Positions 47,128 to 63,592 of a stretch of 64,000 nucleotides of DNA are shown here, in pieces. This DNA comes from an uncultured Gemmatimonadales bacterium. Lineage in GTDB: Bacteria; Gemmatimonadota; Gemmatimonadetes; Gemmatimonadales; GWC2-71-9. The notes beneath the pieces are model-generated. The model made no database searches. It saw only the letters and a program-made list of their open reading frames with translations, and was not told where the DNA came from. The stretch covers positions 416,001-480,000 of the forward strand of contig CAWJIM010000024.1 of assembly GCA_963842945.1 (NCBI GenBank). Direction: 5' to 3'. Every line of letters starts with the position of its first letter. Positions within the stretch are counted from its first letter, which is position 1. The translations under genes and the position numbers were made by a program.

Positions 47128-48129
47128 ATGACGATCAAGCTCGCGGGTCTTTTCCTCCTCCTCGGCGCCGGAACCGCCGAGGCACAAAAAGATTCGGTCT
47201 GGATCCGGAATGGAGACCGGATCACCGGAGAGGTGAAGTCGCTTTCGCGCGGATTGCTCAAGTACTCGACCGACGACCTCGGCACCATCTACATCGAGTG
47301 GGACAAGGTCGACCGGATCAGCACCTCCACCGTCGTGGAAGTCCGGCTGGCCACGGGCCACAAGTTTTACGGGCGCCTGGGGTTGGCTCCCACCGGCCTG
47401 CTGGCCCTCGCGGCCGACACCCTCCGGATCTCAGACATCGTGGGCATGACGCCGATCCAGGGGAAATTCCTGGCTCGGCTGAATGGATATTTCGACCTCG
47501 GGTTCTCCTTCCAGAAAGCCCATGGCGCAGTTCAGCTCTCGACCGGCGGCCGAGTGCAGTACCGGGCTCCGAGCGCGGAGACCACGCTCGATCTCACGGG
47601 CTACATCGAGGATCGGGATGACGCGTCCAAAAGCTCGCGCCTGTCCACTGCACTGACCGAGCGGCTGTTCCTGAGTAGACGATGGAGCACCGGTTTCGTG
47701 GTCGGTTATGACCGAAACGATGAGCTCGATCTGTCGGGGCGGGCACGGCTGGTTGGCTTCGGAACCCGAATACTGGCGCAGTCCAACCATATCGAGTTTC
47801 TGACCAGCGTTGGCATGGTGCTGAATCGGGAGCGGTACTTCACCACCGATTCGACGACAACCGGGGTCGAGGGTTTGCTCGGCGTCGCATTCCGCGCGTT
47901 CCGCTATGACCAGCCCAAGCTCGATGCCTCGTTGACCAGCCAGGCATACCCCAGCTTCGTGGTGCAGGGCCGGGTAAGACTGCAGAGCGATCTACGAGTA
48001 TCCTACGAATTATTGAAGGACTTCATGCTGACCGGTACGCTGTTCGATACCTACGACAGCAAACCGCCGGTGGAGGGCGCTCCGAAGAACGACTACGGCA
48101 CCACGCTCGCGATCACCTGGACCTACTGA
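47128..48129 (+). CDS. DUF481/YdiY-like outer-membrane beta-barrel protein
   Basis: Signal peptide, NGDRITG N-domain, amphipathic strands, terminal aromatic ITWTY. Confidence 0.7.
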   Translation: MTIKLAGLFLLLGAGTAEAQKDSVWIRNGDRITGEVKSLSRGLLKYSTDDLGTIYIEWDKVDRISTSTVVEVRLATGHKFYGRLGLAPTGLLALAADTLRISDIVGMTPIQGKFLARLNGYFDLGFSFQKAHGAVQLSTGGRVQYRAPSAETTLDLTGYIEDRDDASKSSRLSTALTERLFLSRRWSTGFVVGYDRNDELDLSGRARLVGFGTRILAQSNHIEFLTSVGMVLNRERYFTTDSTTTGVEGLLGVAFRAFRYDQPKLDASLTSQAYPSFVVQGRVRLQSDLRVSYELLKDFMLTGTLFDTYDSKPPVEGAPKNDYGTTLAITWTY

Positions 48130-49161: not shown

Positions 49162-49171
49162 CCCTGGGCTC

Positions 49172-49380
49172 GCTCCCAGGCCCGCACCCGCTGGCGGCGC
49201 GTCGAACACCTCTCGTAGTTTCCCTTTCGCACTTCCTCGCTAGCCTCGGGCGTGAGTAAAACCCCACAGCGGACGATACATCTCGAAATATTTTCGCGAC
49301 CTCGTCCCAGCTTATATCGAAGTACACGTGGCGCAAGGCCGCGCCCAAATGATAATGGTCTTGGGGTGCCGCCGCAGCAG
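49172..49380 (-). pseudogene. internally deleted remnant of an amidohydrolase homolog
   Basis: Three collinear blocks matching 50337-50454, 50582-50627 and 50739-50776. Confidence 0.8.
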
Positions 49381-50319: not shown

Positions 50320-51419
50320 CTAGTACTTCTGCGCCTGCTCCCAGGCCCGCACCCGCTGGCGGGCCGCGTCGAACAGCCGCTCGTAGTTTCCCTTTCGCAC
50401 CTTCTCGCTAGCCTCGGGCGTGAGCAGGGCCCACAGCGGACGATACATCTCGAACACCGCGTAGTACTGGGTCGTGTCTCGCGGCGCCACCACATCCGAG
50501 CCGAACAGGAATCGATCGGGGTAGCGGTCGATCAGTGCGGCTGCGCGGCGTGTGGTCTCTGGCGTCGCCAGGAGATACTTGGCGACCTCGTCCCAGCTTA
50601 TATCGAAGTACACGTGGCGCAAGGCCGGGTCGGAAAGAATTCCCTCCACGATCACGCCCTGATTGGGATTCCGTTCCGTCGACCGGCGCCGAGGCGGAGG
50701 CCTGGATCGGGCGCACCACCCGCCCCAGTCCCATGTGGGCCCAGATGATAGTCGTCTTGGGGTGCCGCCGCAGCAGCGCCTTCATCTGGGTGAGGAAGAC
50801 CGGCTCGGCCCCCGCTTTGGCGAACGGCATGTCCATGTCGTTGTGGATCAGTACGACCAGTCCCACCTCCCCGGCAAAATCGAGAATCCGGTCCAGGGCT
50901 GGATCGGTGAGGCTGGCGACATCGCCCGCGATCTTGGATGAAACGAACTCCTTGTGAATGGTGAATTCGCCGATCCCGGTGAAGACACCGGGAAAGGTCT
51001 TGAGCACCCGGCGGATGTGGTCGGCGGCGTACATGTCGGCGGGGTTGAAGCCCGTGATCATCGGATCGAGCCGGGCGCGCTCCTCCGGCTTGAGCGACCG
51101 GTACGCCATCGCGATGAAGGCGTCGGTGAAGGAGTAGTAGTAGAGCGGAGCGTCGCTCTGCAGATAGTAGGTCGGAGCGTAGTCGCCCGAATTTTCGTGG
51201 GACCAGGTCTGCTGCAAGGGAATGCCGAACAGGGTGGACCGGTGGGCCCGCTTCCCCATGATCCGGAGGAAGTCGCGGACGTCGGTGCCTTCCTGGATGT
51301 AGTTGGTCAGGTGGAAGTGGACGTCGTCGAAGTCATCGCTGCTGCCGCCGGCTGCCGCCTGCGCCGCGAGCAGCCGGGGGACCACGCAGGAGAGCGACGA
51401 GAGAGGCTCGCTGCCACAT
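50320..51419 (-). CDS. secreted amidohydrolase (metal-dependent TIM barrel), frameshifted
   Basis: DVHFH, GIGE, IHND, WAHMG, FLFGSD. Probable start MWQRASLVALL at 51419. Indels near 51385 and 50670. Confidence 0.82.
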
Positions 51420-51432
51420 AGTCGGCTCTCGC

Positions 51433-52785
51433 TCACAGCAGGATATCCGTGCCGATGGAGATGGTCGTGCCGCTCTGGCCCGAGGTGTAGAACCCGAAGT
51501 TCGATGCCGCCGGGCTCTTCTCCACCTTTATGAGGTGCAGGTTCAGCCGCCAGCTGCGAGTCCGGCTGGGATAAACGCTCGCGCCACCGGAAACCTCCCA
51601 GGGCTGACGGTCGAAGTCGTCGAATACGTGGCCGTAGGTGAGGTACACCCCCACCAGGCGCGGCACCACCATGTGCATTCCCTGGACCTGAAATCCCTTA
51701 TCTACGATAGACTCCAGCGCGAAGGGACCGGTGGTCGCCAGAAAGTCGGAGAGCTTGCGCACGTAGAACTCGCTCTGGAAGGAGAAGCCGCGATACTTGA
51801 AGCCGGCATCGAGGGCGAGCTCGTCGTAAGTCAGCTTATCCACCGTTACCCCGAGGGCGAGAGCGTCGGCATCGAACGGATTGATTCCATCGGAGAGCTT
51901 GATCTGGGTGGCGTTGGGCGGCGCGGTCTCCGACGCATAACGCGATTCACGGCTGTGAGCGGCCGATGCGCCGAATTGCGTGGCCAGCTTGCTGTGGTAC
52001 TCGAAGTCGCCCAGTCCATTCCGGGCTCCAAACTCGCCCGTGCTCGGCCTCCAGACGACGCTCGCGCTGTACGCCATGTCGCGGGTGTCGTTGGCGGCGG
52101 TGGTACCGAGCTGGCTGATGTTGGTGTTGACCGAGGCCGTGTACCAAAAGCGGTCGATCGGCTGCCCGGTGACGAAAACGCCGGAGGAGAACCCGCCGCG
52201 AAAGAAGTCCTCGGCCATCTGCCGGTCGCTGGAGCCCCAGAAAGGCCAGGAGCCCTGCATCGAGCGCGCGGTGAGATTGGGTGCGATCCCGACTCCAATG
52301 CCGATGGCCTTGTTGAACCGGTAGTTCAGGTTCCCGAACAGCAGGGTCTGCTGCGTGGTGGGCAGCGACCAGAGCGAGATGTTGTAGCGGAACTTGGGGT
52401 CGTAGAAGAACCCGGTGAGCCAGACGAAGGTCCGGTGCCAGTTGAGGTCGTTGCGTGCCTTGACCGCGCGCTCCCGGCCCAGATGGTCCGTGAAGGTCTG
52501 ACCTTCCGACATCTGATTCATGTAGCGGAACACCGCGTAGAAGCTGACGTTGAGGCTGGCGATCTTGGTCTTGGCGATGTCGAAGCCTTTGGCCGGGGTA
52601 AACTCGCCCGCGATGTTGTTGGGAAAGGTTACATCCGATATGGCGGTGGTGTCGTTGGGCTCGCGGCCCGCCTCGTCCTGGGCCAGCGCCCCAGCGGGGA
52701 GGATCGCGATCGCAACCAGACCAGCAATGAGTACCGCACCTGCGGTGCACAGCCAGTTGTGCCGTGCCGTGGTCGCTGGGCGCAT
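51433..52785 (-). CDS. putative outer-membrane porin-like beta-barrel
   Basis: Signal peptide ending ALAQ; aromatic alternating strands throughout. Confidence 0.6.
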   Translation of the reverse strand: MRPATTARHNWLCTAGAVLIAGLVAIAILPAGALAQDEAGREPNDTTAISDVTFPNNIAGEFTPAKGFDIAKTKIASLNVSFYAVFRYMNQMSEGQTFTDHLGRERAVKARNDLNWHRTFVWLTGFFYDPKFRYNISLWSLPTTQQTLLFGNLNYRFNKAIGIGVGIAPNLTARSMQGSWPFWGSSDRQMAEDFFRGGFSSGVFVTGQPIDRFWYTASVNTNISQLGTTAANDTRDMAYSASVVWRPSTGEFGARNGLGDFEYHSKLATQFGASAAHSRESRYASETAPPNATQIKLSDGINPFDADALALGVTVDKLTYDELALDAGFKYRGFSFQSEFYVRKLSDFLATTGPFALESIVDKGFQVQGMHMVVPRLVGVYLTYGHVFDDFDRQPWEVSGGASVYPSRTRSWRLNLHLIKVEKSPAASNFGFYTSGQSGTTISIGTDILL

Positions 52786-52850
52786 CCGCGTTCTCCGTTC
52801 AGGGTTTTAATAGGTCGGCCGATATACAGCTGCGGGTGTTGCCGGCGCGG

Positions 52851-54123
52851 TCAGAACTCCATCTGCAGCCGGCTCTGGAAAAACTGGGTGTTGCCCTTCA
52901 GGGCAAACCGATCGAGCCTGCCGTAACCGTAGATGAGCTCCAGCCGGAGGAAGTCGGCCAGGTGCCAGTTGACCATGGGAGTCAGCCGCCAGAAGGTTCC
53001 GCCCTGCAGGGTCCCGCCATTGAAGTCGCTGTAGGAGAACCGCAGCAGGACCTCCACCGCCCCCGGCCCGCCCTCGAACACCGTTCTCCTCGGTGACACC
53101 TGCCTGAAGTAGCCGCCCACCGTGTTGTAGGAGCGGGTCTCGCCCGTGATCAGCCAGTTGGCGAAGATGTCGCCGCCGTGAAAGACGGGGTCGCCGGTTT
53201 CCGGTGAGCTGGCCTTCTCCCAGTAATACTCGGTGCCGAACAGCCAGGGACCCGGGCGGTAGTACGCCTCGAATCCCAGAGAGCGTCGCCGACGTCGAGT
53301 GGAACTTGCCGGTGTCGATGAAGCTGGGCGCGTCGCTGGCTTCCGGCTTGGCCTTGAGCTGCAGGGTGTCGTTTTCCGGCTTGCCGATATGGAACGACGC
53401 CCCGATGTGAATCAGCTTACCGGCGCTGTCGGAGACCATCGGCACCCAGGCGAGACGGCCAGCGACCGCCTGATGGAAGTAGGAGAAGCTCTCGTCTTTG
53501 GACAGCCAGTCGGTGAACACGCCGAGGTTCCAGATCAGGTGTCGATTGGGCAGATAACCCAGCCACTTGATGCCGTCGGACAGGAGCGGGATTGCGTCGG
53601 AGAAGGTGAACCGCTCGGCGGTCCAGCCGTCGTATCCGGTCATCACCTTATTGAGACTGGGCCCCTCCTTGCTGCGCCCGATCCAGAAGTTTCCCCAGAG
53701 CTCCGGGACTCCCAGCATCAATCCCGTCTGGCGGACGAACCACTCGTCGACGTAGCCGTCGTACATGAACCCGGCCTGGTAGGTGAGCCGCCGCTTGGTC
53801 TTGATCCGTCCGCTGATGAGCAGGCGTGAGTCGCGGATCTTGAACCCGGGCTCGAGGTCCAACTGTTCCTTGGCGGCGGCGTCCTGGCCGTAGGTGGCGT
53901 AGTCCAGCAGGAAGCCGGCGCCGACCCGGAGGGTAAGGAATGGCCCGTCGTATTCGTTCCATTTGACCAGACTACGGCGCGGCGGCTCGGCCTCGGACTC
54001 TCCGGCCGAGATCCCGGTTTCGAGGGTGGTATCGCGAGCGGTTGAATCCGTTTGCTGCGCGCACAGCGATGCGCCCCTCGACCAGGTGAGCGCCAGCAGA
54101 ACCCACGCGAAGGAGGAGCGCAT
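52851..54123 (-). CDS. OprO/OprP-family anion-selective porin (frameshift near 53275)
   Basis: Signal peptide, GRSKEG, ERFTF, RLAWVP, TGETRSY, GAVEVLLRFS, NWHL, terminal RLQMEF. Confidence 0.78.
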
Positions 54124-54138
54124 CGAAGGCTGTTCTGC

Positions 54139-55233
54139 TCAGTACTCGTCGAAGTACCGCTGGATCGTCTTCGGGTCCTTGGTCTTCAGCAGCGCCAGCC
54201 GGAGAAGCACCCGCGCCTTCTGGGGGTTCAGCCCCAGCGAGGCGACAGTGCCCAGGCTGTCGTCGTTCACCTCCACGTTCCGCCCTACCTGGCCGGTGGC
54301 CACCCGGGTCGAGCGCACGCAGACGATCCCCTTCTTGGCCTGGGCGGCCAGGGCATCGAGCGCGCTCTTGGTCATGTTGCCGTTGCCCACACCCGCGATG
54401 ACGATGCCCTTGGCGCCGGACGCGGCCGCCGCGTCGATGATCTTCCCGTCCATGTTCTCGTAGGCCATGATGATGTCCACTCGGGGCAGGACCGTGCTCT
54501 TGTCCACGCTGAACTCCGAGGTCACGGTGTTCTTCCCGACCGGGCCCCGATACCACTCCGGCGTGCCGTAGGCGATGGTGCCGATCAGCCCCGACTGGGG
54601 AGAGAGGAAGGTCTGCACCGCGGTGGTGCTGGTCTTGGTGAGCGAGGCCGCGCCATGGATCCAGTCGTTGACCACCACCAGGACACCGCGTCCAACCGCG
54701 TCCTTGTTGGCCGCGACCGCCACCGCGTTGTAGAAGTTGAGTGGGCCGTCGGCCGAGAGCGCGGTGGATGGGCGCATCGATGCGGTCAGCACCACCGGCT
54801 TCTTCGACTTGATCACGAGGTTCAGGAAGTACGCCGTCTCCTCGATGGTGTCGGTGCCGTGGGTGATGGCCACGCCGGCGACGTCAGGCTGGGCCAGCAG
54901 CTCGTTGATCCGGGTGGCCAGCTTCATCCACACCTGATCGTTCATGTCCTGGGAGCCGATGTTGGAGATCTGCTCGCCCCGCATGTTGGCCAGCTTCTTG
55001 GCCTGCGGTACTGCGTTGAGCAGCTGATCGACCCCCACCTGGCCGCTGGAGTAGCCGGCCTGAACGTCGCTCTCGGCTGCACCGGCTATGGTGCCGCCGG
55101 TGGCGAGCACTACGACGGTCGGCAGGTTTCCCTTGGGCGCCTCCGCGGTCGCCTGGGCGGCCACCGATGCGGTGCCGCCCGCTGCACTGAGCAGCAGGGT
55201 CAGGACGAGGGGAACTGCATTTCGCCGGTACAT
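54139..55233 (-). CDS. ansB: periplasmic type II L-asparaginase/glutaminase-asparaginase
   Basis: Signal peptide, ATGGTIAG, HGTDT, SADGP.N, GVGNGN, LNPQKAR. Confidence 0.92.
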   Translation of the reverse strand: MYRRNAVPLVLTLLLSAAGGTASVAAQATAEAPKGNLPTVVVLATGGTIAGAAESDVQAGYSSGQVGVDQLLNAVPQAKKLANMRGEQISNIGSQDMNDQVWMKLATRINELLAQPDVAGVAITHGTDTIEETAYFLNLVIKSKKPVVLTASMRPSTALSADGPLNFYNAVAVAANKDAVGRGVLVVVNDWIHGAASLTKTSTTAVQTFLSPQSGLIGTIAYGTPEWYRGPVGKNTVTSEFSVDKSTVLPRVDIIMAYENMDGKIIDAAAASGAKGIVIAGVGNGNMTKSALDALAAQAKKGIVCVRSTRVATGQVGRNVEVNDDSLGTVASLGLNPQKARVLLRLALLKTKDPKTIQRYFDEY

Positions 55234-55283
55234 TGAAGCCTCCTATAGCGTGAACAGAAACGGCTTTGACGTGATGACCAGCT

Positions 55284-56853
55284 CTACTTCTTGTGGTATT
55301 GGCTCCGGTCGAGGTTGGTCAGCTTGACCGGGTCCATGATGTCGGCGAGCTGCTTATCGGTCAGAAGCTTCTGCTCCCGGACGATCTCGAGGATGCCCTT
55401 CCCGCTCTTGTAGGCCTCGGCCGCCAGCTCGGTGGTCTTTTCGTAACCCAGCACCGGGTTGAGCGCGGTCACGATGCCCACCGTGGTTTCCATGTAGTGG
55501 TCCAGCACCTTCTTGTTGACCGTGATCCCGTCCACGCAACGGGTGCGGAAGGCTATGGAGGTGTTGTAGAGCAGGTGCTGCGACTCGATCATGGCGACAC
55601 CCTCGACCGGCTCGTAGGCGTTGAGCTGAAGCTGACCGCTGTGGGCGGCGAGGGTCACGGTGTAGTCGTTCCCCATGACCCGGAACGCCACGAGGTTCAC
55701 CAGCTCGGGAATGACGGGATTCACCTTCCCCGGCATGATCGAGGATCCCGGCTGAAGCGCCGGAAGATTGATTTCGGCGAGGCCCGCGCGGGGGCCCGAG
55801 GTGAGCAGGATCAGGTCGCTCGCGATCTTGGACAGCTTGACCGCGACGCTCTTCATCGCCGAGGAGTACACCACGAAGCCCTGCTGGTCCCAGGTGGCCG
55901 ACAGCATGTCCGGGGCGGCCTTGATCGGCTTGCCGGTGAGCTTGGCGAGGTGCGCCGCGGTGCGCTCGGCATAGCCTTTGGGGGCGTTGAGTCCCGTCCC
56001 GATGGCCGTGGCGCCCATGTTCACGGTGTACAGATACTTCTCCGCGTCGCGCAGCAGGGCAATCTCGCCGTCCAGCGAAGACGCAAAGGCGTGAAACTCC
56101 TGCCCCACCGTCATGGGCACCGCATCCTGCAGCTCGGTGCGTCCCATCTTGACGATATTCATGAACTCGTTGCCCTTGGCCCGGAATGAGGCGGCCAGCT
56201 TCTCCAGCTCGGCGATGAGTTTCCCGTTCCGCAGAATCAACGCGATCTTGATGGCGGTCGGATACGAGTCGTTGGTGGACTGAGACTGGTTCAGGTCGTC
56301 ATGCGGCTCGAGAACCTCGTAGTCGCCCTTCTTGTGCCCGGTCAGCTCCAGCCCGACGTTGGCCATCACCTCGTTGGCGTTCATGTTCGTCGAAGTGCCG
56401 GCGCCACCCTGGTACCAGTCCACCGTGAACTGGTCGTGGTACTTGCCCTGCAGCAGCGCATTGGCCGCCTTCTCGATGGCCGCCAGCTTGTCCTTCTTCA
56501 TGGCGCCCACGTCGGTGTTGCCCTGTGCCGCGGCCAGCTTCACGATGGCCCACGCCTCGATGAACCCCGGATAGTGGTTGATCGGCACTCCCGAGATCTG
56601 GAAGTTCTCCAGCGCCCGGGCGGTCTGGACGCCATAGTAGGCGTCGGCCGGGATCTGCCTTCTCTCCCAGGAGGTCCTTCTCCGTGCGGGTGGCTCCGCC
56701 CTGGCTGGCGGGCTGAGCGGTGGGCTGCTGTGGACCCTGTGAGCCCTCGGTCGTTTGCGCAACAGCCGGCGGGGCTTCCCGGGATTTGCACCCCCAGGTG
56801 AGCCCTAATGCCAGGATCGGAGCCAGCAGCGCGCCCTGTTGTGTTCTATTCAC
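55284..56853 (-). CDS. aspA: aspartate ammonia-lyase with N-terminal lipoprotein signal (one extra base near 56658)
   Basis: RTEKDLLG-E-K/QIPADAYYG, GGAGTSTNMN, SQSTND, GSSIMPGKVNP. N-terminus ...LALGLTWGC followed by a Q/P-rich linker. Confidence 0.88.
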
Positions 56854-56878
56854 AGTGACACTCCTTCTTCTTCCGCGG

Positions 56879-57913
56879 CTAGCTCTTGGGCTCGACCGCG
56901 TAAGGATTGGCGTGCAGGCGGTTCACGATCTCGATGATCGCTTTCTGCGCCCGTACGCTGTTGCCCGCATCGTCGAGTGGCGGTGAAATGACGGCGATGC
57001 CGAACTTGCCCGGCGCGACGGCGATGATCCCGCCGCCTACGCCGCTCTTGCCCGGCAGTCCGGTGTGGTAGAGCCATTTGCCGGTGTCGTCGTACAGTCC
57101 GGCCGTCGCCATGACCGCCAGCACATAGGGCACGTTCTTCGAGCTCATCACCGTCTTGCCGCTCACCGGGTTCTTGCCCCCGTCGGCCAGGGTGGCGGCC
57201 ATGGTGGCCAGGTCCTTGGCGTTCACGTTGATGGAGCACTGCTCGGTGTAGACGTCGGTGGCCTGGTCCGGCTTCTCCTTGATGTAGCCGTAGGCGTACA
57301 TCAGGGCGCCGATGGCCTGGTTGCGCTGGTTGGTGGCGGCTTCGGACTTGAAGACTTCCTCATTCACGGCGAGCGGCCTGCCGGCAAAGGCCGAGTGCCA
57401 GTCGAGGATGCTCTTCCACACCTCGTCGCGGGTGCCGCCCTTGACCATGGAGGTGGTAGCGATGGCGCCCGGATTGACCAGGGAGTTCATCTCCGGCCCG
57501 CCCAGCGCTTTCTGGGAGAACTCGACCGATACGATGGAGTTGAAGCGCATGCCGGTGGCGTCCACGCCGACCGTCTTCTCGATCTTCTCCGGCCCGTCCT
57601 CCTCGATCACCTTGGCCAGGGTGAAGACCTTGGAGATGGACTGGATCGAGACCTCGGTCTTGATGTCGCCCGCGGTGTAGACCTTCCCGTCGGTCGTGAC
57701 CAGCGCAATGCCGAAGACCTTGGGATCCACTTTGGCCAGCGCCGGGATGTAGTCGGCGTTCTTTCCCTCCTGCAGATTCTTGAACTTGGTGTAGGTCTCA
57801 TTCAGGACCGTCGCGATCGACTGGTTCTGGCCCTGAGCCGTGAGAGCCGGCGGAACGCTGGCCCCGGCGGCCGCCAGGGCCAGGGTGAGTATTGCGCGAG
57901 AAGTCCTGATCAT
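56879..57913 (-). CDS. glsA: glutaminase A with N-terminal signal peptide
   Basis: ADYIPAL, QSISK (SxxK), NPGAI, PGKSGVGGG, GNSVR. N-terminus MIRTSRAILTLALAAAGA...ALTAQ. Confidence 0.9.
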   Translation of the reverse strand: MIRTSRAILTLALAAAGASVPPALTAQGQNQSIATVLNETYTKFKNLQEGKNADYIPALAKVDPKVFGIALVTTDGKVYTAGDIKTEVSIQSISKVFTLAKVIEEDGPEKIEKTVGVDATGMRFNSIVSVEFSQKALGGPEMNSLVNPGAIATTSMVKGGTRDEVWKSILDWHSAFAGRPLAVNEEVFKSEAATNQRNQAIGALMYAYGYIKEKPDQATDVYTEQCSINVNAKDLATMAATLADGGKNPVSGKTVMSSKNVPYVLAVMATAGLYDDTGKWLYHTGLPGKSGVGGGIIAVAPGKFGIAVISPPLDDAGNSVRAQKAIIEIVNRLHANPYAVEPKS

Positions 57914-57924
57914 GGAGATCACCC

Positions 57925-59115
57925 TTAGAAGGTCTTGGAGAAATTGTATTTGAAGGAGAACTGGACCTTGAAGATGTCCGAGCTGAATCCGTCCTCGAAG
58001 TTCGTGCGGTCGGCCCACTGGAGCTCGGCAACCGTCATGACGCCCGGGACGGGGTAGTACGCCACGTTGCCGACGACATAGTTACCGTGGCTGAAGGCGT
58101 CAGCCGTCTGAAGCTCGCTGTTGTCGATATCCACCATCGAATAGCCGATCGAGGAGCTGAACCTCTCGTTCCACGTATGGTCCAGGAACGCCACGACACC
58201 GAGGACAGGAAGCGCGACGCCCTGGATCGGCGCGACCGGGTCGCCGGCATTTGTCTCGATTCCCACGTCGGCCGGGGCGTCGTTCATGTAGTTCTGGATG
58301 CCCTCGCCGTACACCACCGAGCCACGGACGATATTCTGCTCACCGATCTTCACGTTGGTACTCCCGTGGATGCCCCAGCCGAGCGCGTCGCCGCTCAGGT
58401 CGAACGCGTCGGTGCCCTGGTCCTCCCACTTGATATACCGGGCAATCCCGGAGATCTCGATGTAGCCCCACTTCGTGGCGCGGCGGTATTCGGCGGAGAG
58501 GTCAGGCAGCGGGAATCTCGGTTTGACGTCCGCGATCTCGATCCGGCCTGCCACATCTCCCTGGTCAGCGCTGGCACCCGGCCGCTCCAGCGCGATGGTC
58601 ATCCGGGTGTCCCCCTGGATCGGCATGTAGCGCAGCTGCACGTTGCGGAAGAAGACCATTCCGTTCGGCCCCCAGTATTCGACCGTGTTGGGGAACACGT
58701 CGATGTCCATGAACGGGCTCCAGGTCTGACCGGCACCCCACTTGCCCAGCTCGCCATAGGCATGCCGAAGCCGCAACGTGGTCTGCCCGGCGTCCACGCC
58801 GGTGCCGAAGAGCTCGAACTCGAACTGGGTCTTGAGGGTGCCCACCTTGGTCGGCGTGCTGGAGCGCACGCCGAAGCGGGTCTGCCGAGCGCTGAAGAAG
58901 GCTTGGCCGTCGGGGGCGAACTGATTCTCGAAAGCGGGGAGCTTGGTGGGCCGGACGACGTCGAACCAGGCGGGGTCGATCTGATTGACATTGTACCCGG
59001 CATCCATCATCGCGAAACCGTACACCTCGAACGTGGATGAATCTGCGGTGCCTTGTGCCGCCATGGCCGAGGGAAGGCTGCAGAGCAGCAGGGCGGCGAA
59101 AAGACGTGCTTTCAA
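57925..59115 (-). CDS. DcaP-family trimeric outer-membrane porin
   Basis: Signal peptide, EVYGF, RQTRFG, RLRHAYG, GQTWSPFMD, ALERP, PDL, terminal F. Confidence 0.82.
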   Translation of the reverse strand: MKARLFAALLLCSLPSAMAAQGTADSSTFEVYGFAMMDAGYNVNQIDPAWFDVVRPTKLPAFENQFAPDGQAFFSARQTRFGVRSSTPTKVGTLKTQFEFELFGTGVDAGQTTLRLRHAYGELGKWGAGQTWSPFMDIDVFPNTVEYWGPNGMVFFRNVQLRYMPIQGDTRMTIALERPGASADQGDVAGRIEIADVKPRFPLPDLSAEYRRATKWGYIEISGIARYIKWEDQGTDAFDLSGDALGWGIHGSTNVKIGEQNIVRGSVVYGEGIQNYMNDAPADVGIETNAGDPVAPIQGVALPVLGVVAFLDHTWNERFSSSIGYSMVDIDNSELQTADAFSHGNYVVGNVAYYPVPGVMTVAELQWADRTNFEDGFSSDIFKVQFSFKYNFSKTF

Positions 59116-59429
59116 GGGATGGTCCTCGCAGCTGACGTGAGCACACAGACGCGTGATTCGCCTGATGGGACGACGAAGCCGGGGTAGGTCTTCTCCTGGA
59201 TGGGGCTATGATAAGGCGGGAGAAACGGATGGAGGAACTAGACCTTCGTGCAGGAATTGCCTTGAGTTATGCCATCGAGCCCAGCGTTCGGGCGGAAGAG
59301 AAGAATGGCCCGCGATGAGTGCGCAGCCTTCCCTGTCCCAATCTGATACACGTAGTGCGCCCGGACCGAACCCACCGCTTCAGGCTCAACCCCGAATCAG
59401 ACTGGATCCCAGCTACCTGATCCACGCTC

Positions 59430-60145: not shown

Positions 60146-60701
60146 ATGAGGACGAAGGGCATGCTGACGGATTGCGATGATTGCGGGTGCGCTCGGCTGC
60201 GCGAAGCCGGATCAGTCGCCCGAGACCGGCAAATATGCCCTGAAAGTGCCGAATGGCCTCGCCTTCTCCGAGTTCAAGGGCTACGAGAACTGGCAGCTTG
60301 TCTCCGTCAGTCAGGACGGACCCGCAATGGCTGCCATTCTGGGGAATCCGGAGATGATCAAGGCCTACGAGGCCGGTATTCCCGGCAATGGCAAGCCGCT
60401 CCCGGATGGCGCCAAGTTCGCGAAGATCCACTGGGTCCCCACGAAGATGGCGACCTTCCCCGCGGCGACCGTGCCAGGCAGGCAACACGACGTCGACTTC
60501 ATGGTGAAAGACAGCAAGAGATTCGCGGACAGTGGCGGATGGGGATGGGGCGCATTCGAGTACGACTCCGCGTCCGGGAAGTTCGCGCCCGCCACCACGG
60601 CGGCCAACCCTCCGCAGGGGAACGATGCCAAGTGCGGATTCGCCTGCCACACGATTGTGAAGAACCGGGACTACGTCTTCACCGACTACGCGCAGCGCTA
60701 G
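60146..60701 (+). CDS. cytochrome P460/c'-beta family lipoprotein
   Basis: GYENW, PDGAKFAK, FMVKD, GGWGWGAF, C-terminal CGFACH...DYVF. GALGC lipobox; ATG 60146 needs one indel. Confidence 0.82.
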
Positions 60702-60868
60702 ACCCGTTTCGGCGAGCGTACGCACGGTCGTCGTACAGCGAGTTACTTGACGGGTCTTGTACGGCCCGAGGCTATGAGCAAATGATGAGCGGAAGGCGGA
60801 GTTCCGTGCGGTTCTGACGATGTAAGCCTGGACCTACTTAGCTGCTATGAACCTGGGAGGGGGATTCG

Positions 60869-61363
60869 ATGGCGCAACACAAAGGGGATGAACCCGCAAT
60901 TTCGCGTGACCGGCTGGCGGAACTACTCAACGAGGACCTGTCGCGCGAGTACCAGGCGATCATCAGCTACGTGGTGTATTCCCAGGTACTGAGCGGCGCG
61001 CAGTACATGGACATCGCCGCCCAGCTCGAAATCCATGCCCGGCAGGAACTCGATCACGCGCTGATCCTGTCGCGACAGATCGACTACCTCGGCAAAATGC
61101 CGGCCGTCACCTCGAAACCGGTGCGCACGTCAAAGAAGGCCGAAGATATGCTGCGTTTCGATCTCGAGAATGAAAACGAGACGATCCGGAATTACCGCGA
61201 TCGCGTCCGGCAATGCGAGGCGCTGGGCGAATATGCGATGGCGGAACAGATCCGCCAAATCCTGGTGCAGGAGCAGGACCATCAAATCGATCTGGCCACA
61301 GCTCTTGGCGAAGACGTCCCAGACCTGTCGGCGCCGAAACGTCCCGGGAAAGCTGGGGACTGA
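60869..61363 (+). CDS. ferritin-like/bacterioferritin-family protein
   Basis: LNEDLSREYQAI, ELDH, ENETI, EQDH di-iron ligands. Confidence 0.85.
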   Translation: MAQHKGDEPAISRDRLAELLNEDLSREYQAIISYVVYSQVLSGAQYMDIAAQLEIHARQELDHALILSRQIDYLGKMPAVTSKPVRTSKKAEDMLRFDLENENETIRNYRDRVRQCEALGEYAMAEQIRQILVQEQDHQIDLATALGEDVPDLSAPKRPGKAGD

Positions 61364-61372
61364 GGTGCCCGT

Positions 61373-62506
61373 GTGATGGCCAGTGACTGGACTCAGAACC
61401 GGCTCACCGCGAGACTCGGGATCGAGTATCCCATCATCCAAGGTCCGCTCGGCGGGCTGTCGTCACAGCGATTGACCGCCGCGGTGTCCAACTTTGGTGG
61501 ACTGGGATCGTTCGGTGCCCACTCCAGGACGCCGCCAGAGATCAGAGACGTGATCGCGGAGATTCGCTCCCTGACCTCCCGGCCGTTCGCCATGAACCTG
61601 TGGGTGTCCATGGAAGACGAGGGCGCCCGGAGCTCGGATGAGACCGCATTCAACCGGTCGCTGGCACCGCTCGCGGATCACCTGGTCGAATTGGGAGTCC
61701 CCCGCCCTACCTTCCGTCCGTATTCTCCCATCCGCTTTGAAGACCAGGCGCGGGTGCTGTTGGAGTCGAAGGTCCCGGTCTTCAGCTTCATCTTCGGCAT
61801 CCCTCCTCGGGAGATCCTCGAAGAATGCCGCGCCAAAGGCATCGTCACGGTTGGGACCGCGACGACACCGGAGGAGGCGGCAGCACTGGAGCAGGCCGGG
61901 GTGGATGCCATCGTCGCGTCGGGATTCGAGGCCGGAGGACACCGCGGCTCGTTTCTCCGTACGGCCGAGGACTCACTAACCGGGACCATCTCGCTCGTGC
62001 CCCGGGTCGTGGACCTGGTAAATGTCCCGGTGATCGCGGCCGGCGGCATCGCCGATGCGCGGGGAGTGGTCGCCGCGCTGGCTCTCGGCGCCGAGGCAGT
62101 CCAGATGGGAACTGCCTTCCTGGCCTGCGAAGAATCCGGCGCCAGCCCGCTGCATCGCGACGCTCTGATGCGACCCGAGGCCGGGCACACCGCTCTGACC
62201 CAGGGGTTCAGCGGAAGACTCGCGCGGGGCATTCACAATCAATTGCTCGAGGAGCTGAATCGTTCGGAAACCGAGATCCTGCCCTATCCGCTGCAACGAG
62301 CCCTGGTCAGGAGTCTCTCGGTGGCGGCCGAGGCTCAGGGCCGATCGGATCTTCTACCGCTCTGGGCCGGCCAAAGCGCGACGCTCTCCCGGTGGACCGA
62401 CGTATCTGCATTCCTAAGGTCACTGGTAGAGGAGCTTTCCGAAATCGCCGGACCAGTGGTTCAGTGGAGCGGGAACCGCCGTCACCAGCATGCGGTTCCT
62501 CGATGA
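61373..62506 (+). CDS. nitronate monooxygenase-family flavoprotein
   Basis: PIIQGPLGG, EAGGHRG, IAAGGIAD, QMGTAF, LWAGQS. Confidence 0.88.
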   Translation: MMASDWTQNRLTARLGIEYPIIQGPLGGLSSQRLTAAVSNFGGLGSFGAHSRTPPEIRDVIAEIRSLTSRPFAMNLWVSMEDEGARSSDETAFNRSLAPLADHLVELGVPRPTFRPYSPIRFEDQARVLLESKVPVFSFIFGIPPREILEECRAKGIVTVGTATTPEEAAALEQAGVDAIVASGFEAGGHRGSFLRTAEDSLTGTISLVPRVVDLVNVPVIAAGGIADARGVVAALALGAEAVQMGTAFLACEESGASPLHRDALMRPEAGHTALTQGFSGRLARGIHNQLLEELNRSETEILPYPLQRALVRSLSVAAEAQGRSDLLPLWAGQSATLSRWTDVSAFLRSLVEELSEIAGPVVQWSGNRRHQHAVPR

Positions 62507-62536
62507 TCCCGAAGAGTTCCCTCAAGGAGGTGCCGT

Positions 62537-63592
62537 ATGCCGCTGCGTCTGTCACCCGTCATGGCCGGGGCAATGCTGCTTTGCGCGACAGCCGGCCTGC
62601 TGGGGTGCAACCGCTCGAGCCCGGGGGCCGAGCAGACCCGGGCACCGGCGGTAACGGCTGACTCGAGCTCCGCCTCGACTGCGAGCCTGCCGCAGCAGAT
62701 TGCGGATCAAATGGTCCTGCTCAACGGCGGGATCCATACCGGATTCCGGTTCAATCACGCCAAAGGGATCGTCGTGAGCGGGAACTTCACGCCGACCGCT
62801 CAAGCCAAATCGCTGAGCCAGGCCGCACAGTTCACCGGGCCTGCGGTGCCGGTGATTGTCCGATTCTCCAATGCTCCCGGAGTCCCCATCAACGCGGACA
62901 ACGACCCCGGATCGGGTCCCCGCGGCATGGCTATCCGCTTCACCCTGCCAGGCGGGGCGTTCACCGACATCGTCAGCATTTCGCACAACGGCTTCGTGGT
63001 GGGCACCGGCGATGACTTCCTGGCATTCTTCAAGGCGATCGCGGCGAGCGGCCCCGACGCTCCGCACCCGAACCCGGTTGAGTCTTTCCTGGGGAGCCAT
63101 CCGCGAGCCGCCAAGTTCGTCACCGAGGTCCAGCTGCGGCCCAGGAGCTACGCCACCGTCGCTTACTTCGGGAACAACGCCTTTGTCTTCGTGGACGGAA
63201 ACGGCAAGAGACAGGCGCTGCGATACCAGACCGTTCCGGTTGCCGGCGTGGCGAATCTGGACTCCGCGTCGGCGGCGCGGGCCGACAGTAACTACCTGCA
63301 GGAGGAGCTTCGGCGGAGACTCGCGCGGGGCCCCGCCCAGTTCCGTCTGTACGCCCAGATCCCGAATCCCGGCGACCCTACCAACGACGGCTCGATCGTG
63401 TGGCCCGACGACCGGAAACGGGTTCTGCTGGGCACAATTAGCCTGACCAAGGTCGAAGCCAACCAGGAGGAGCTGCAGCGCTCGCTCACGTTCAATCCCA
63501 CGTTCCTGACCAAAGGGATCGAGCTGTCCGACGACCCGCTCGTCCAGCTTCGATCGGCGGTGTACGCGCTGTCGGTGGCGCATCGGCATTAA
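62537..63592 (+). CDS. catalase-related peroxidase (SrpA-like), lipoprotein
   Basis: RFNHAKG, VRFS, RGMAIRF, SDDP...RSAVY; GLLGC lipobox. Confidence 0.85.
   Translation: MPLRLSPVMAGAMLLCATAGLLGCNRSSPGAEQTRAPAVTADSSSASTASLPQQIADQMVLLNGGIHTGFRFNHAKGIVVSGNFTPTAQAKSLSQAAQFTGPAVPVIVRFSNAPGVPINADNDPGSGPRGMAIRFTLPGGAFTDIVSISHNGFVVGTGDDFLAFFKAIAASGPDAPHPNPVESFLGSHPRAAKFVTEVQLRPRSYATVAYFGNNAFVFVDGNGKRQALRYQTVPVAGVANLDSASAARADSNYLQEELRRRLARGPAQFRLYAQIPNPGDPTNDGSIVWPDDRKRVLLGTISLTKVEANQEELQRSLTFNPTFLTKGIELSDDPLVQLRSAVYALSVAHRH

Follow-up and report, generated by a model that had tools for sequence, protein, structure and literature searches.

Why would a bacterium carry a glutaminase, an aspartase and an asparaginase, all apparently exported, in one operon with three porins and without an inner-membrane carrier? 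The question is raised by a window of 64,000 nucleotides (nt), the whole stretch of DNA that we analysed, from an uncultured Gemmatimonadales bacterium (assembly GCA_963842945.1, contig CAWJIM010000024.1, positions 416,001 to 480,000). The operon comprises seven genes, all on the minus strand and separated by intergenic gaps of 11-68 nt, in the order dcaP, glsA, aspA, ansB, OprP-like porin, second porin and amidohydrolase, as an earlier note on this DNA had described it (seven co-directional, closely packed genes). The note had also proposed that these genes encode a chain of deamidation and deamination in the periplasm, fed by porins. Our computational analysis bears out the part that concerns the glutaminase GlsA and the aspartase AspA, whose predicted export is well supported; export is ordinary for type II asparaginases such as AnsB, and the operon itself is a junction of two modules. 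It is real, conserved and apparently undescribed.

The glsA gene (56879..57913, ATG start at 57913) encodes a glutaminase A of the YbaS-like subfamily with a predicted Sec signal peptide, and aspA (55284..56853, GTG start) an aspartate ammonia-lyase with a predicted lipoprotein signal, in which lipidation is predicted at Cys22, ahead of a tether rich in Pro, Ala and Gln. Signals were called by a home-made rule that looks for a positive n-region, an uncharged hydrophobic stretch and an AxA-like site or lipobox. Six of the seven operon N-termini pass it uncorrected; that of the amidohydrolase passes only once an insertion at 51387 is allowed for, its uncorrected GTG frame failing, and the claim that all seven proteins bear signals thus stands for six as sequenced and for the seventh after frame correction. 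The earlier note had allowed that the true starts of GlsA and AspA might lie downstream of the signals. This was not found: between signal and catalytic domain no in-frame ATG, GTG or TTG occurs in either gene, and glsA has none within the first 60 codons past its start. The signals are also conserved across several phyla in both families while their sequences drift. GlsA passed the rule in 59 of the 61 loci recovered with the amidohydrolase as bait (in the two failures an Arg interrupts the hydrophobic segment), in all 16 Gemmatimonadota module copies and in 112 of the 120 closest proteins, while six of eight non-module copies failed and the two that passed look, by eye, like internal segments. 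For AspA, 111 of the 120 closest homologues carry an N-terminal extension, which has a lipobox in 90, is hydrophobic but lacks a lipobox in 20 and is of another kind in 1; a lipobox or Sec-type extension is thus present in 110, and the other nine homologues are called from an internal Met. Among 73 distinct metagenome copies of AspA, found with a mature-domain query, 66 passed, four were cut by contig ends and three failed; none of 11 other AspA/FumC proteins passed.

A matched comparison with cytoplasmic sisters was obtained in the Acidobacteriota, where 401 genomes (400 drawn evenly, together with the centre genome) were searched and N-termini were judged by eye. AspA matches at an expectation value of 1e-150 or better were present in 24 of the 401 genomes. 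All ten AspAs at 71-82% identity have a signal, a Glu after a GRT motif (GRT-E) and 1-4 Cys; none of the 17 at 52-62% identity has a signal, and all of these have GRT-Q and 5-13 Cys. A DASS gene follows aspA in 10 of the 13 cytoplasmic sister copies and lies within 1.5 kilobases (kb) of the exported aspA in 0 of 10. Unpaired cysteines are avoided by exported proteins, and the median Cys content of the mature domains is 0.23% in exported AspA (n = 79) against 1.34% in the comparison set (n = 12), and 0.32% in exported GlsA (n = 80) against 1.68% (n = 14). In a tree of 51 rows chosen from the collected loci, the exported AspAs (26 rows) form one clade (100/100) on a long stem (0.42). The clade lies within the cytoplasmic AspAs, most of which have a DASS carrier gene behind them, and this placement shows that the exported aspartase had one evolutionary origin. 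Because no downstream start exists, the signals are conserved, cysteines are few and the exported AspAs form a single clade, the displacement of these two enzymes from the cytoplasm, as the earlier note had it, is well supported as a prediction, and the conserved gene combination described below agrees with it. Mis-called starts or frameshift artefacts as a source of false signals were ruled out by the absent downstream starts, the conserved signals and a comparison of frames with relatives. Tat (twin-arginine) export of AspA was rejected: RR occurs within the first 30 residues in 43 of the 111 extensions and is absent from the window copy.

The family assignments of the three nitrogen-releasing enzymes are as follows. 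GlsA scored above cut-off with PF04960 (346.9, cut-off 27), NF009020 (426.2, cut-off 395) and TIGR03814 (352.1, cut-off 255.4); its closest solved relative is E. coli YbaS (1u60), and in alignment to it the S-x-x-K, YxxQC, G-L-Y-D and KSGVGGG motifs, which we take to be the catalytic motifs of glutaminase A, are all present. The homology-search queries for glsA started at 57895, six codons inside the true ATG. AspA has Lyase_1 and FumaraseC_C domains, and its intact relative in locus L003 scored 668.5 with NF008909 (cut-off 510) and far lower with FumC models. The GSSIMPGKVN (SS-loop), STND and GGAGT motifs are present in all 78 exported-clade AspA domains; residues of the SS-loop (catalytic Ser, Met, Lys, Asn) have roles described in part of PMC11744663. 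AnsB (ansB, 54139..55233) passed the signal rule and scored 437 with TIGR00520 (cut-off 314.3); it has an Asparaginase domain with solved relatives. No second GlsA or AspA was found elsewhere in the genome assembly (4.3 Mb, 24 contigs, 87% complete), the sole paralogue being FumC-level at 42%.

Some unusual members of these families were seen along the way. An exported-clade AspA at L172:6578-7954, directly behind an AspT-family carrier gene, has by its sequence lost its signal. Acidobacteriota aspartases in L255-L258 are extended at the N-terminus by a long segment that is no signal and looks like a fused regulatory domain, and a 782-residue protein (P0349) listed with aspartase and asparaginase domains is either an AspA-AnsB fusion or a read-through error. 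Two non-module glutaminases differ in layout, one having two tandem domains in one frame (L042:2277-4121) and the other a long N-terminal extension (L045).

The operon is two usually separate modules joined: dcaP-glsA-porin-amidohydrolase and aspA-ansB-porin, the latter inserted within the former. Using the amidohydrolase as bait, we counted neighbours in the best 80 of at least 578 loci and found the second porin in 69, glsA in 61, dcaP in 54, ansB in 12, the OprO/P porin in 11 and aspA in only 6. With aspA as bait, the 47 loci with enough downstream DNA contained ansB in 44, the OprO/P porin in 36 and glsA in only 13. The low counts of aspA with one bait and of glsA with the other therefore indicate two modules. 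Among the 55 full-length amidohydrolase-baited loci, dcaP, glsA and the second porin occur together in 40 and all seven genes in three; loci L003 and L182 have all seven in other orders. The earlier note would have been refuted by a gene combination that other genomes do not share; this was not the case either, the combination being conserved, though mostly as two separate modules. Hosts of the amidohydrolase loci belong to Gemmatimonadota, Acidobacteriota, Gammaproteobacteria, Bacteroidota, Verrucomicrobiota and Eisenbacteria, and the core module dcaP-glsA-porin-amidohydrolase is found also in Pontibacter ruber. Named close homologues of the operon proteins come from Gemmatimonadales. The distribution is patchy: within the genus, 4 of 36 genomes gave any glsA match, and within the phylum 17 of 401, the source genome included. 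The plasmid collection gave one distant amidohydrolase match and no GlsA or AspA above 60% identity.

What would such an operon do? The reading that we favour, and hold to be slightly better than an even bet, is periplasmic deamination for nutrition, with the carbon skeletons imported by separately encoded carriers. Gln, Asn and Asp would enter the periplasm through the three predicted porins; exported GlsA would convert Gln to Glu and NH4+, and AnsB followed by lipid-anchored AspA would convert Asn via Asp to fumarate, with release of two NH4+. Glu and fumarate would then be imported by carriers encoded elsewhere, for which the source genome offers one DctA/GltP-family gene (contig C19) and one distant DASS, or, in some relatives, by Dcu, DASS or AspT carriers beside the module. 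NH4+ may be taken up separately (the genome has two amtB genes) or left outside, which would uncouple carbon and nitrogen uptake. The role is likely nutritional, and in some relatives it probably belongs to low-oxygen energy metabolism. The amidohydrolase probably feeds or parallels the chain by hydrolysing some amide. A possible benefit would be to avoid forming ammonium in the cytoplasm, which it can leave as NH3 with the proton staying behind.

The carriers bear directly on this reading. The earlier note had stressed an operon lacking an inner-membrane transporter, and locally this is true, none being found in the operon or in the flanking open reading frames scanned; as a rule it does not hold, since 19 of 80 exported-aspA loci include Dcu (8), AspT (8) or DASS (5). 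Such carriers also occur in 8 of the 80 amidohydrolase loci. A strict exclusion of carriers by exported AspA, suggested by loci L038, L053, L126 and L129, was rejected on the 19 of 80 and is a tendency only. Near exported aspA, in the same 80 loci, we found genes for a serine dehydratase with a Tat signal (4), Pta (5), Ack (4) and PFL (3), and an MFS carrier also in a minority. These neighbours, which were not seen in the source genome, suggest import and fermentation of the carbon skeleton. A periplasmic fumarate reductase was considered as a consumer of fumarate and rejected, as the three strong PF00890 loci in the genome look SdhA/FrdA/NadB-type and have no signal where the start is readable.

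Several points weigh against nutritional deamination as we describe it. Most exported-aspA loci have no carrier, and among the long loci 5 of 20 have one. With the queries used, the source genome gave no match to PFL, Dcu, AspT or serine dehydratase, and the low-oxygen part therefore rests on relatives. The signal rule gave two false positives among the eight non-module GlsA copies, the lists of closest homologues were ranked with a query that contained the signal (the AspA test was redone with the mature domain alone), and related sequences are not independent of one another. The AspA of the intact relative scored 628.6 with TIGR00839, below the cut-off of 681.2, and the Glu of GRT-E, at the position of AspB His188, could alter pH range or substrate. 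Relatives of DcaP and OprP are known for anions (dicarboxylate, phosphate) and not for neutral amides. For the amidohydrolase, searches by sequence, by fold and in the Atlas gave no near relative of characterised function, and the Protein Data Bank (PDB) gave no sequence match.

One alternative is nitrogen scavenging pure and simple, in which NH4+ is taken up, the carbon skeletons are discarded and import of amino acids is avoided; we regard this as quite unlikely. The window operon without a carrier and the two amtB genes of the genome would fit it, and P. aeruginosa, according to part of PMC7962211, uses Gln nitrogen without a Glu carrier while Glu accumulates outside. Regulation points partly the same way. 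A sigma-54-like motif, scored against the sigma-54 consensus, occurs 150-350 nt upstream in 12 of 30 aspA-first loci; on the opposite strand it was found in 1 of 30, and among random windows in 32 of 1550. It stands steadily 200-300 nt 5′ of the aspA match in loci L149, L150, L161, L163, L164, L186, L191, L192, L201, L206 and L210. However, the sigma-54 activator genes nearby (4 of 80 loci) are GAF-type and not NtrC-type, no such motif was found 5′ of the window operon (best score 7 of 11), and no amtB match was found in the module loci examined. Dicarboxylate carriers and pyruvate-fermentation genes adjoin the module in a minority of loci, which also speaks against discarding the carbon. In the amidohydrolase-baited loci a score of 9 or more was reached in 6 of 64, near background.

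The earlier note had mentioned acid buffering as another possible function. As periplasmic acid defence the operon would be an exported counterpart of AR2_Q, the glutamine-dependent acid resistance of E. coli YbaS/GadC and related systems (marked by an acid pH optimum and Gln-dependent survival at pH 2.5), with ammonia raising periplasmic pH. We consider this unlikely, although some evidence is compatible with it: the best solved relative of GlsA is the acid-active YbaS (pH 4-6, in part of PMC6250119), many hosts are Terriglobia, fermentation genes lie nearby in a few loci and, speculatively, the active-site Glu of AspA might suit low pH. YbaS and the Bacteroides gad-linked GlsA are, moreover, placed among the exported GlsA lineages (support 84-87, long branches) in a tree made by a quick method, which gave long-branch warnings and from which loci L008-L027 and wider duplicates were left out. 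By ordinary acid-base chemistry, the reactions Gln to Glu- and NH4+ and Asp- to fumarate2- and NH4+ take up no net proton above the carboxyl pKa of about 4.1-4.4, and NH3 would escape from a periplasm that porins leave open. No match to glutamate decarboxylase (GAD) or GadC was found in 261 loci (a control locus aside) and none to GAD in the source genome; one weak YbaT-like match was seen in locus L210. The hosts further include Vicinamibacterales, Pontibacter and Cellvibrio, which to our knowledge are not acidophiles. Acid buffering is thus a weak explanation: at any pH higher than about 4.5 the reactions would use up no net proton, and gad and gadC, the customary partners, were not found in the module loci. 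The operon shares with AR2_Q, as described in parts of PMC6250119 and PMC5695133, the glutaminase subfamily, as NF009020 scores above its cut-off and 1u60 is the closest PDB entry. It is not a member of that system, in which YbaS has no signal and is encoded beside ybaT or gadB/gadC, whereas the window GlsA has a predicted signal and is encoded beside porins.

It is highly improbable, in our view, that other substrates, for example modified amides of aspartate or glutamate, are the targets of the exported lyase and of the amidohydrolase, in which case the chain would be no simple route from Asn through Asp to fumarate. Such substrates might be suspected from GRT-E, which is invariant in 120 of 120 AspA homologues and whose Glu is Gln or His in other aspartases (Gln in E. 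coli AspA), together with the long stem branch of the clade. A PDB search with a short fragment of the GRT-E region gave no match; His188 of AspB at this position contacts the substrate amine, according to part of PMC11744663. The GGAGT, STND and GSSIMPGKVN motifs nevertheless match aspartases, ansB lies near aspA in 44 of the 47 loci with enough downstream DNA, and the catalytic motifs of GlsA are present. The amidohydrolase (50320..51419) raises the same suspicion, being the most constant partner of GlsA and very conserved, without a characterised relative. It is a predicted exported TIM-barrel enzyme of the amidohydrolase superfamily with HxH, His, His and Asp metal ligands. Its match to PF04909 (Amidohydro_2) is marginal, and H9, H11, E126, H167, H203 and D283 are invariant in 67 homologues. 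The structure model has a predicted local distance difference test (pLDDT) score of 80.5, and its best structural matches are uncharacterised proteins (Z 20.9, 17% identity), the top matches, weighed for a characterised activity (lactonase, decarboxylase, deaminase, amidase), being 12-18% identical and tied in Z.

DcaP relatives are anion porins, and dcaP (57925..59115, TTG start, predicted Sec signal) is assigned to the DcaP family of outer-membrane porins by PF19577 (68.3 bits, cut-off 27) and by A. baumannii DcaP (6eus, expectation value 2e-8). The OprO/P-family porin gene (52854..54123) matches PF07396 (Porin_O_P; 33.1, cut-off 20.9) on its C-terminal frame and is intact in the relative locus L046. 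The second porin (51433..52785, predicted Sec signal), which the earlier note had called an unknown barrel, indeed matches no Pfam or NCBIfam profile; its fold, in an AlphaFold2 model (pLDDT 89.2), is now predicted to be that of an OprP-like porin, the best structural match being OprP 2o4v (Z 26.7, root-mean-square deviation 3.2, 320 aligned). It has 993 relatives at the 50% level, and its Atlas neighbours are called porin or Porin_O_P. Signal counts across loci were set aside for DcaP and for this porin, because long N-terminal extensions went beyond the distance scanned. OprP is an anion porin according to the title of structure 2o4v. In loci L030, L031 and L037, homologues of the second porin have an N-terminal cysteine-containing domain ahead of the barrel.

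Compared with close relatives, the operon contains frame-shifting single-base insertions at about 56657 (aspA), 53280 (OprO/P porin), and 51387 and 50680 (amidohydrolase), that at 51387 falling within the amidohydrolase signal. These four are likely assembly errors, because frame changes were found also in 7 of 20 unrelated genes tested in the same genome and the relatives are intact. For the same reasons the genes are unlikely to be pseudogenes. About 1 kb downstream, at 49170-49380, three fragments that share 91-98% identity with the 3′ portion of the amidohydrolase gene are either a decayed duplicate or an assembly artefact. On the 5′ side, a conserved segment at 59205..59260 (minus strand), which contains the inverted repeat CCT-N6-AGG and the hexamer TATCAT, is a candidate promoter or regulator site. 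The segment could be aligned between the window, L046 and L047, and CCT-N6-AGG occurs also in L050 and L054; a scan of the operon region for sigma-70 promoters and terminators gave nothing above shuffled sequences, with no sigma-70 consensus at 59205..59260.

The nearest described systems couple a periplasmic deamidase to a carrier, while here AspA itself is predicted to be exported. Campylobacter jejuni 81-176 has secreted AnsB and GGT together with DcuAB, DctA and Peb; as in our proposal, the periplasm is where amides are cleaved, uptake of the resulting acids comes afterwards, and a signal on AnsB widens the diet (part of PMC4178425). As told in the same part of that source, its AspA acts on imported aspartate and GGT handles glutamine, whereas in the window operon the predicted signals are on a GlsA-family glutaminase and an aspartase, and porins and an amidohydrolase are co-encoded. 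In Pseudomonas, a periplasmic glutaminase-asparaginase AnsB with AatJQMP under AauSR/RpoN frees ammonia from Gln independently of Glu uptake (part of PMC7962211). Sigma-54 control is a further likeness, the motif here being found only in relatives of the aspA module; the Pseudomonas system, as far as that part goes, differs in pairing an asparaginase-family enzyme with an ABC carrier, without exported aspartase or GlsA. A Bacteroides locus (L228) likewise unites aspA, secreted ansB and a Porin_O_P-family porin, but there a Dcu carrier gene separates aspA from ansB and the AspA lacks a signal, whereas the window aspartase is predicted to be exported and the carrier is absent. Open PubMed Central and bioRxiv full text, where hits were mostly judged by title or abstract and subscription journals lie largely outside, yielded no exported aspartase, exported GlsA-family glutaminase or such cluster; within that literature the earlier note was right that the layout has no characterised precedent.

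New here are a comparison of exported copies with matched cytoplasmic sisters, a single origin nested among the latter, the loss of cysteines and the GRT-E marker. Annotation and metabolic models treat aspartase and GlsA-type glutaminase as cytoplasmic. If the prediction is true, the conserved exported clade, its GRT-E marker and its carrier-linked cytoplasmic ancestor would change what is assumed about the release of amino-acid nitrogen in Gemmatimonadota, Acidobacteriota and other soil groups. The soil question of whether amino-acid nitrogen is freed outside the cell or taken up intact, as raised in part of PMC5207700, could be tested with named genes. The analysis also yielded a very conserved, predicted exported amidohydrolase and two porin families without known substrate.

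More tentatively, and with some doubt, these modules may belong to widespread periplasmic islands that strip nitrogen from amino acids by glutaminase, asparaginase, re-tuned lipoprotein aspartase, Tat-exported Fe-S serine dehydratase and amidohydrolase, each with porins; only carbon skeletons would be imported, NH4+ and proton being kept outside. In abundant soil phyla, such islands would offer a gene-level marker of extracytoplasmic deamination, the mineralisation-immobilisation route of soil nitrogen, for which isotope methods cannot tell the organisms responsible. L-serine dehydratases (TIGR00720) with a twin-arginine signal (DRRxFxxRS) were observed at L151:4937-6289, L165:4663-6015, L195:15457-16809, L205:3439-4788 and L080:16081-17430, where exported aspA or the core module is nearby and MFS-Pta-Ack-PFL genes are often present. 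They are probably Tat-exported Fe-S deaminases.

Further genes were noted around the operon and its relatives. Short contigs of relatives covering most of the operon were present in three metatranscriptome runs and one DNA run (6-15% of words shared), and were not used as evidence, since contigs do not demonstrate transcription. A DUF481 outer-membrane barrel at 47128-48129 of the window recurs near the module in 23 of 93 loci, and genes for DUF3300/DUF2950, a LuxR-type response regulator with a HisKA_3 kinase and bestrophin-like proteins also recur there. Past the 5′ end of the operon, on the plus strand at 60177-63592, the window encodes cytochrome P460-like, ferritin-like, nitronate monooxygenase and catalase-related proteins, the last with a lipoprotein-like N-terminus.

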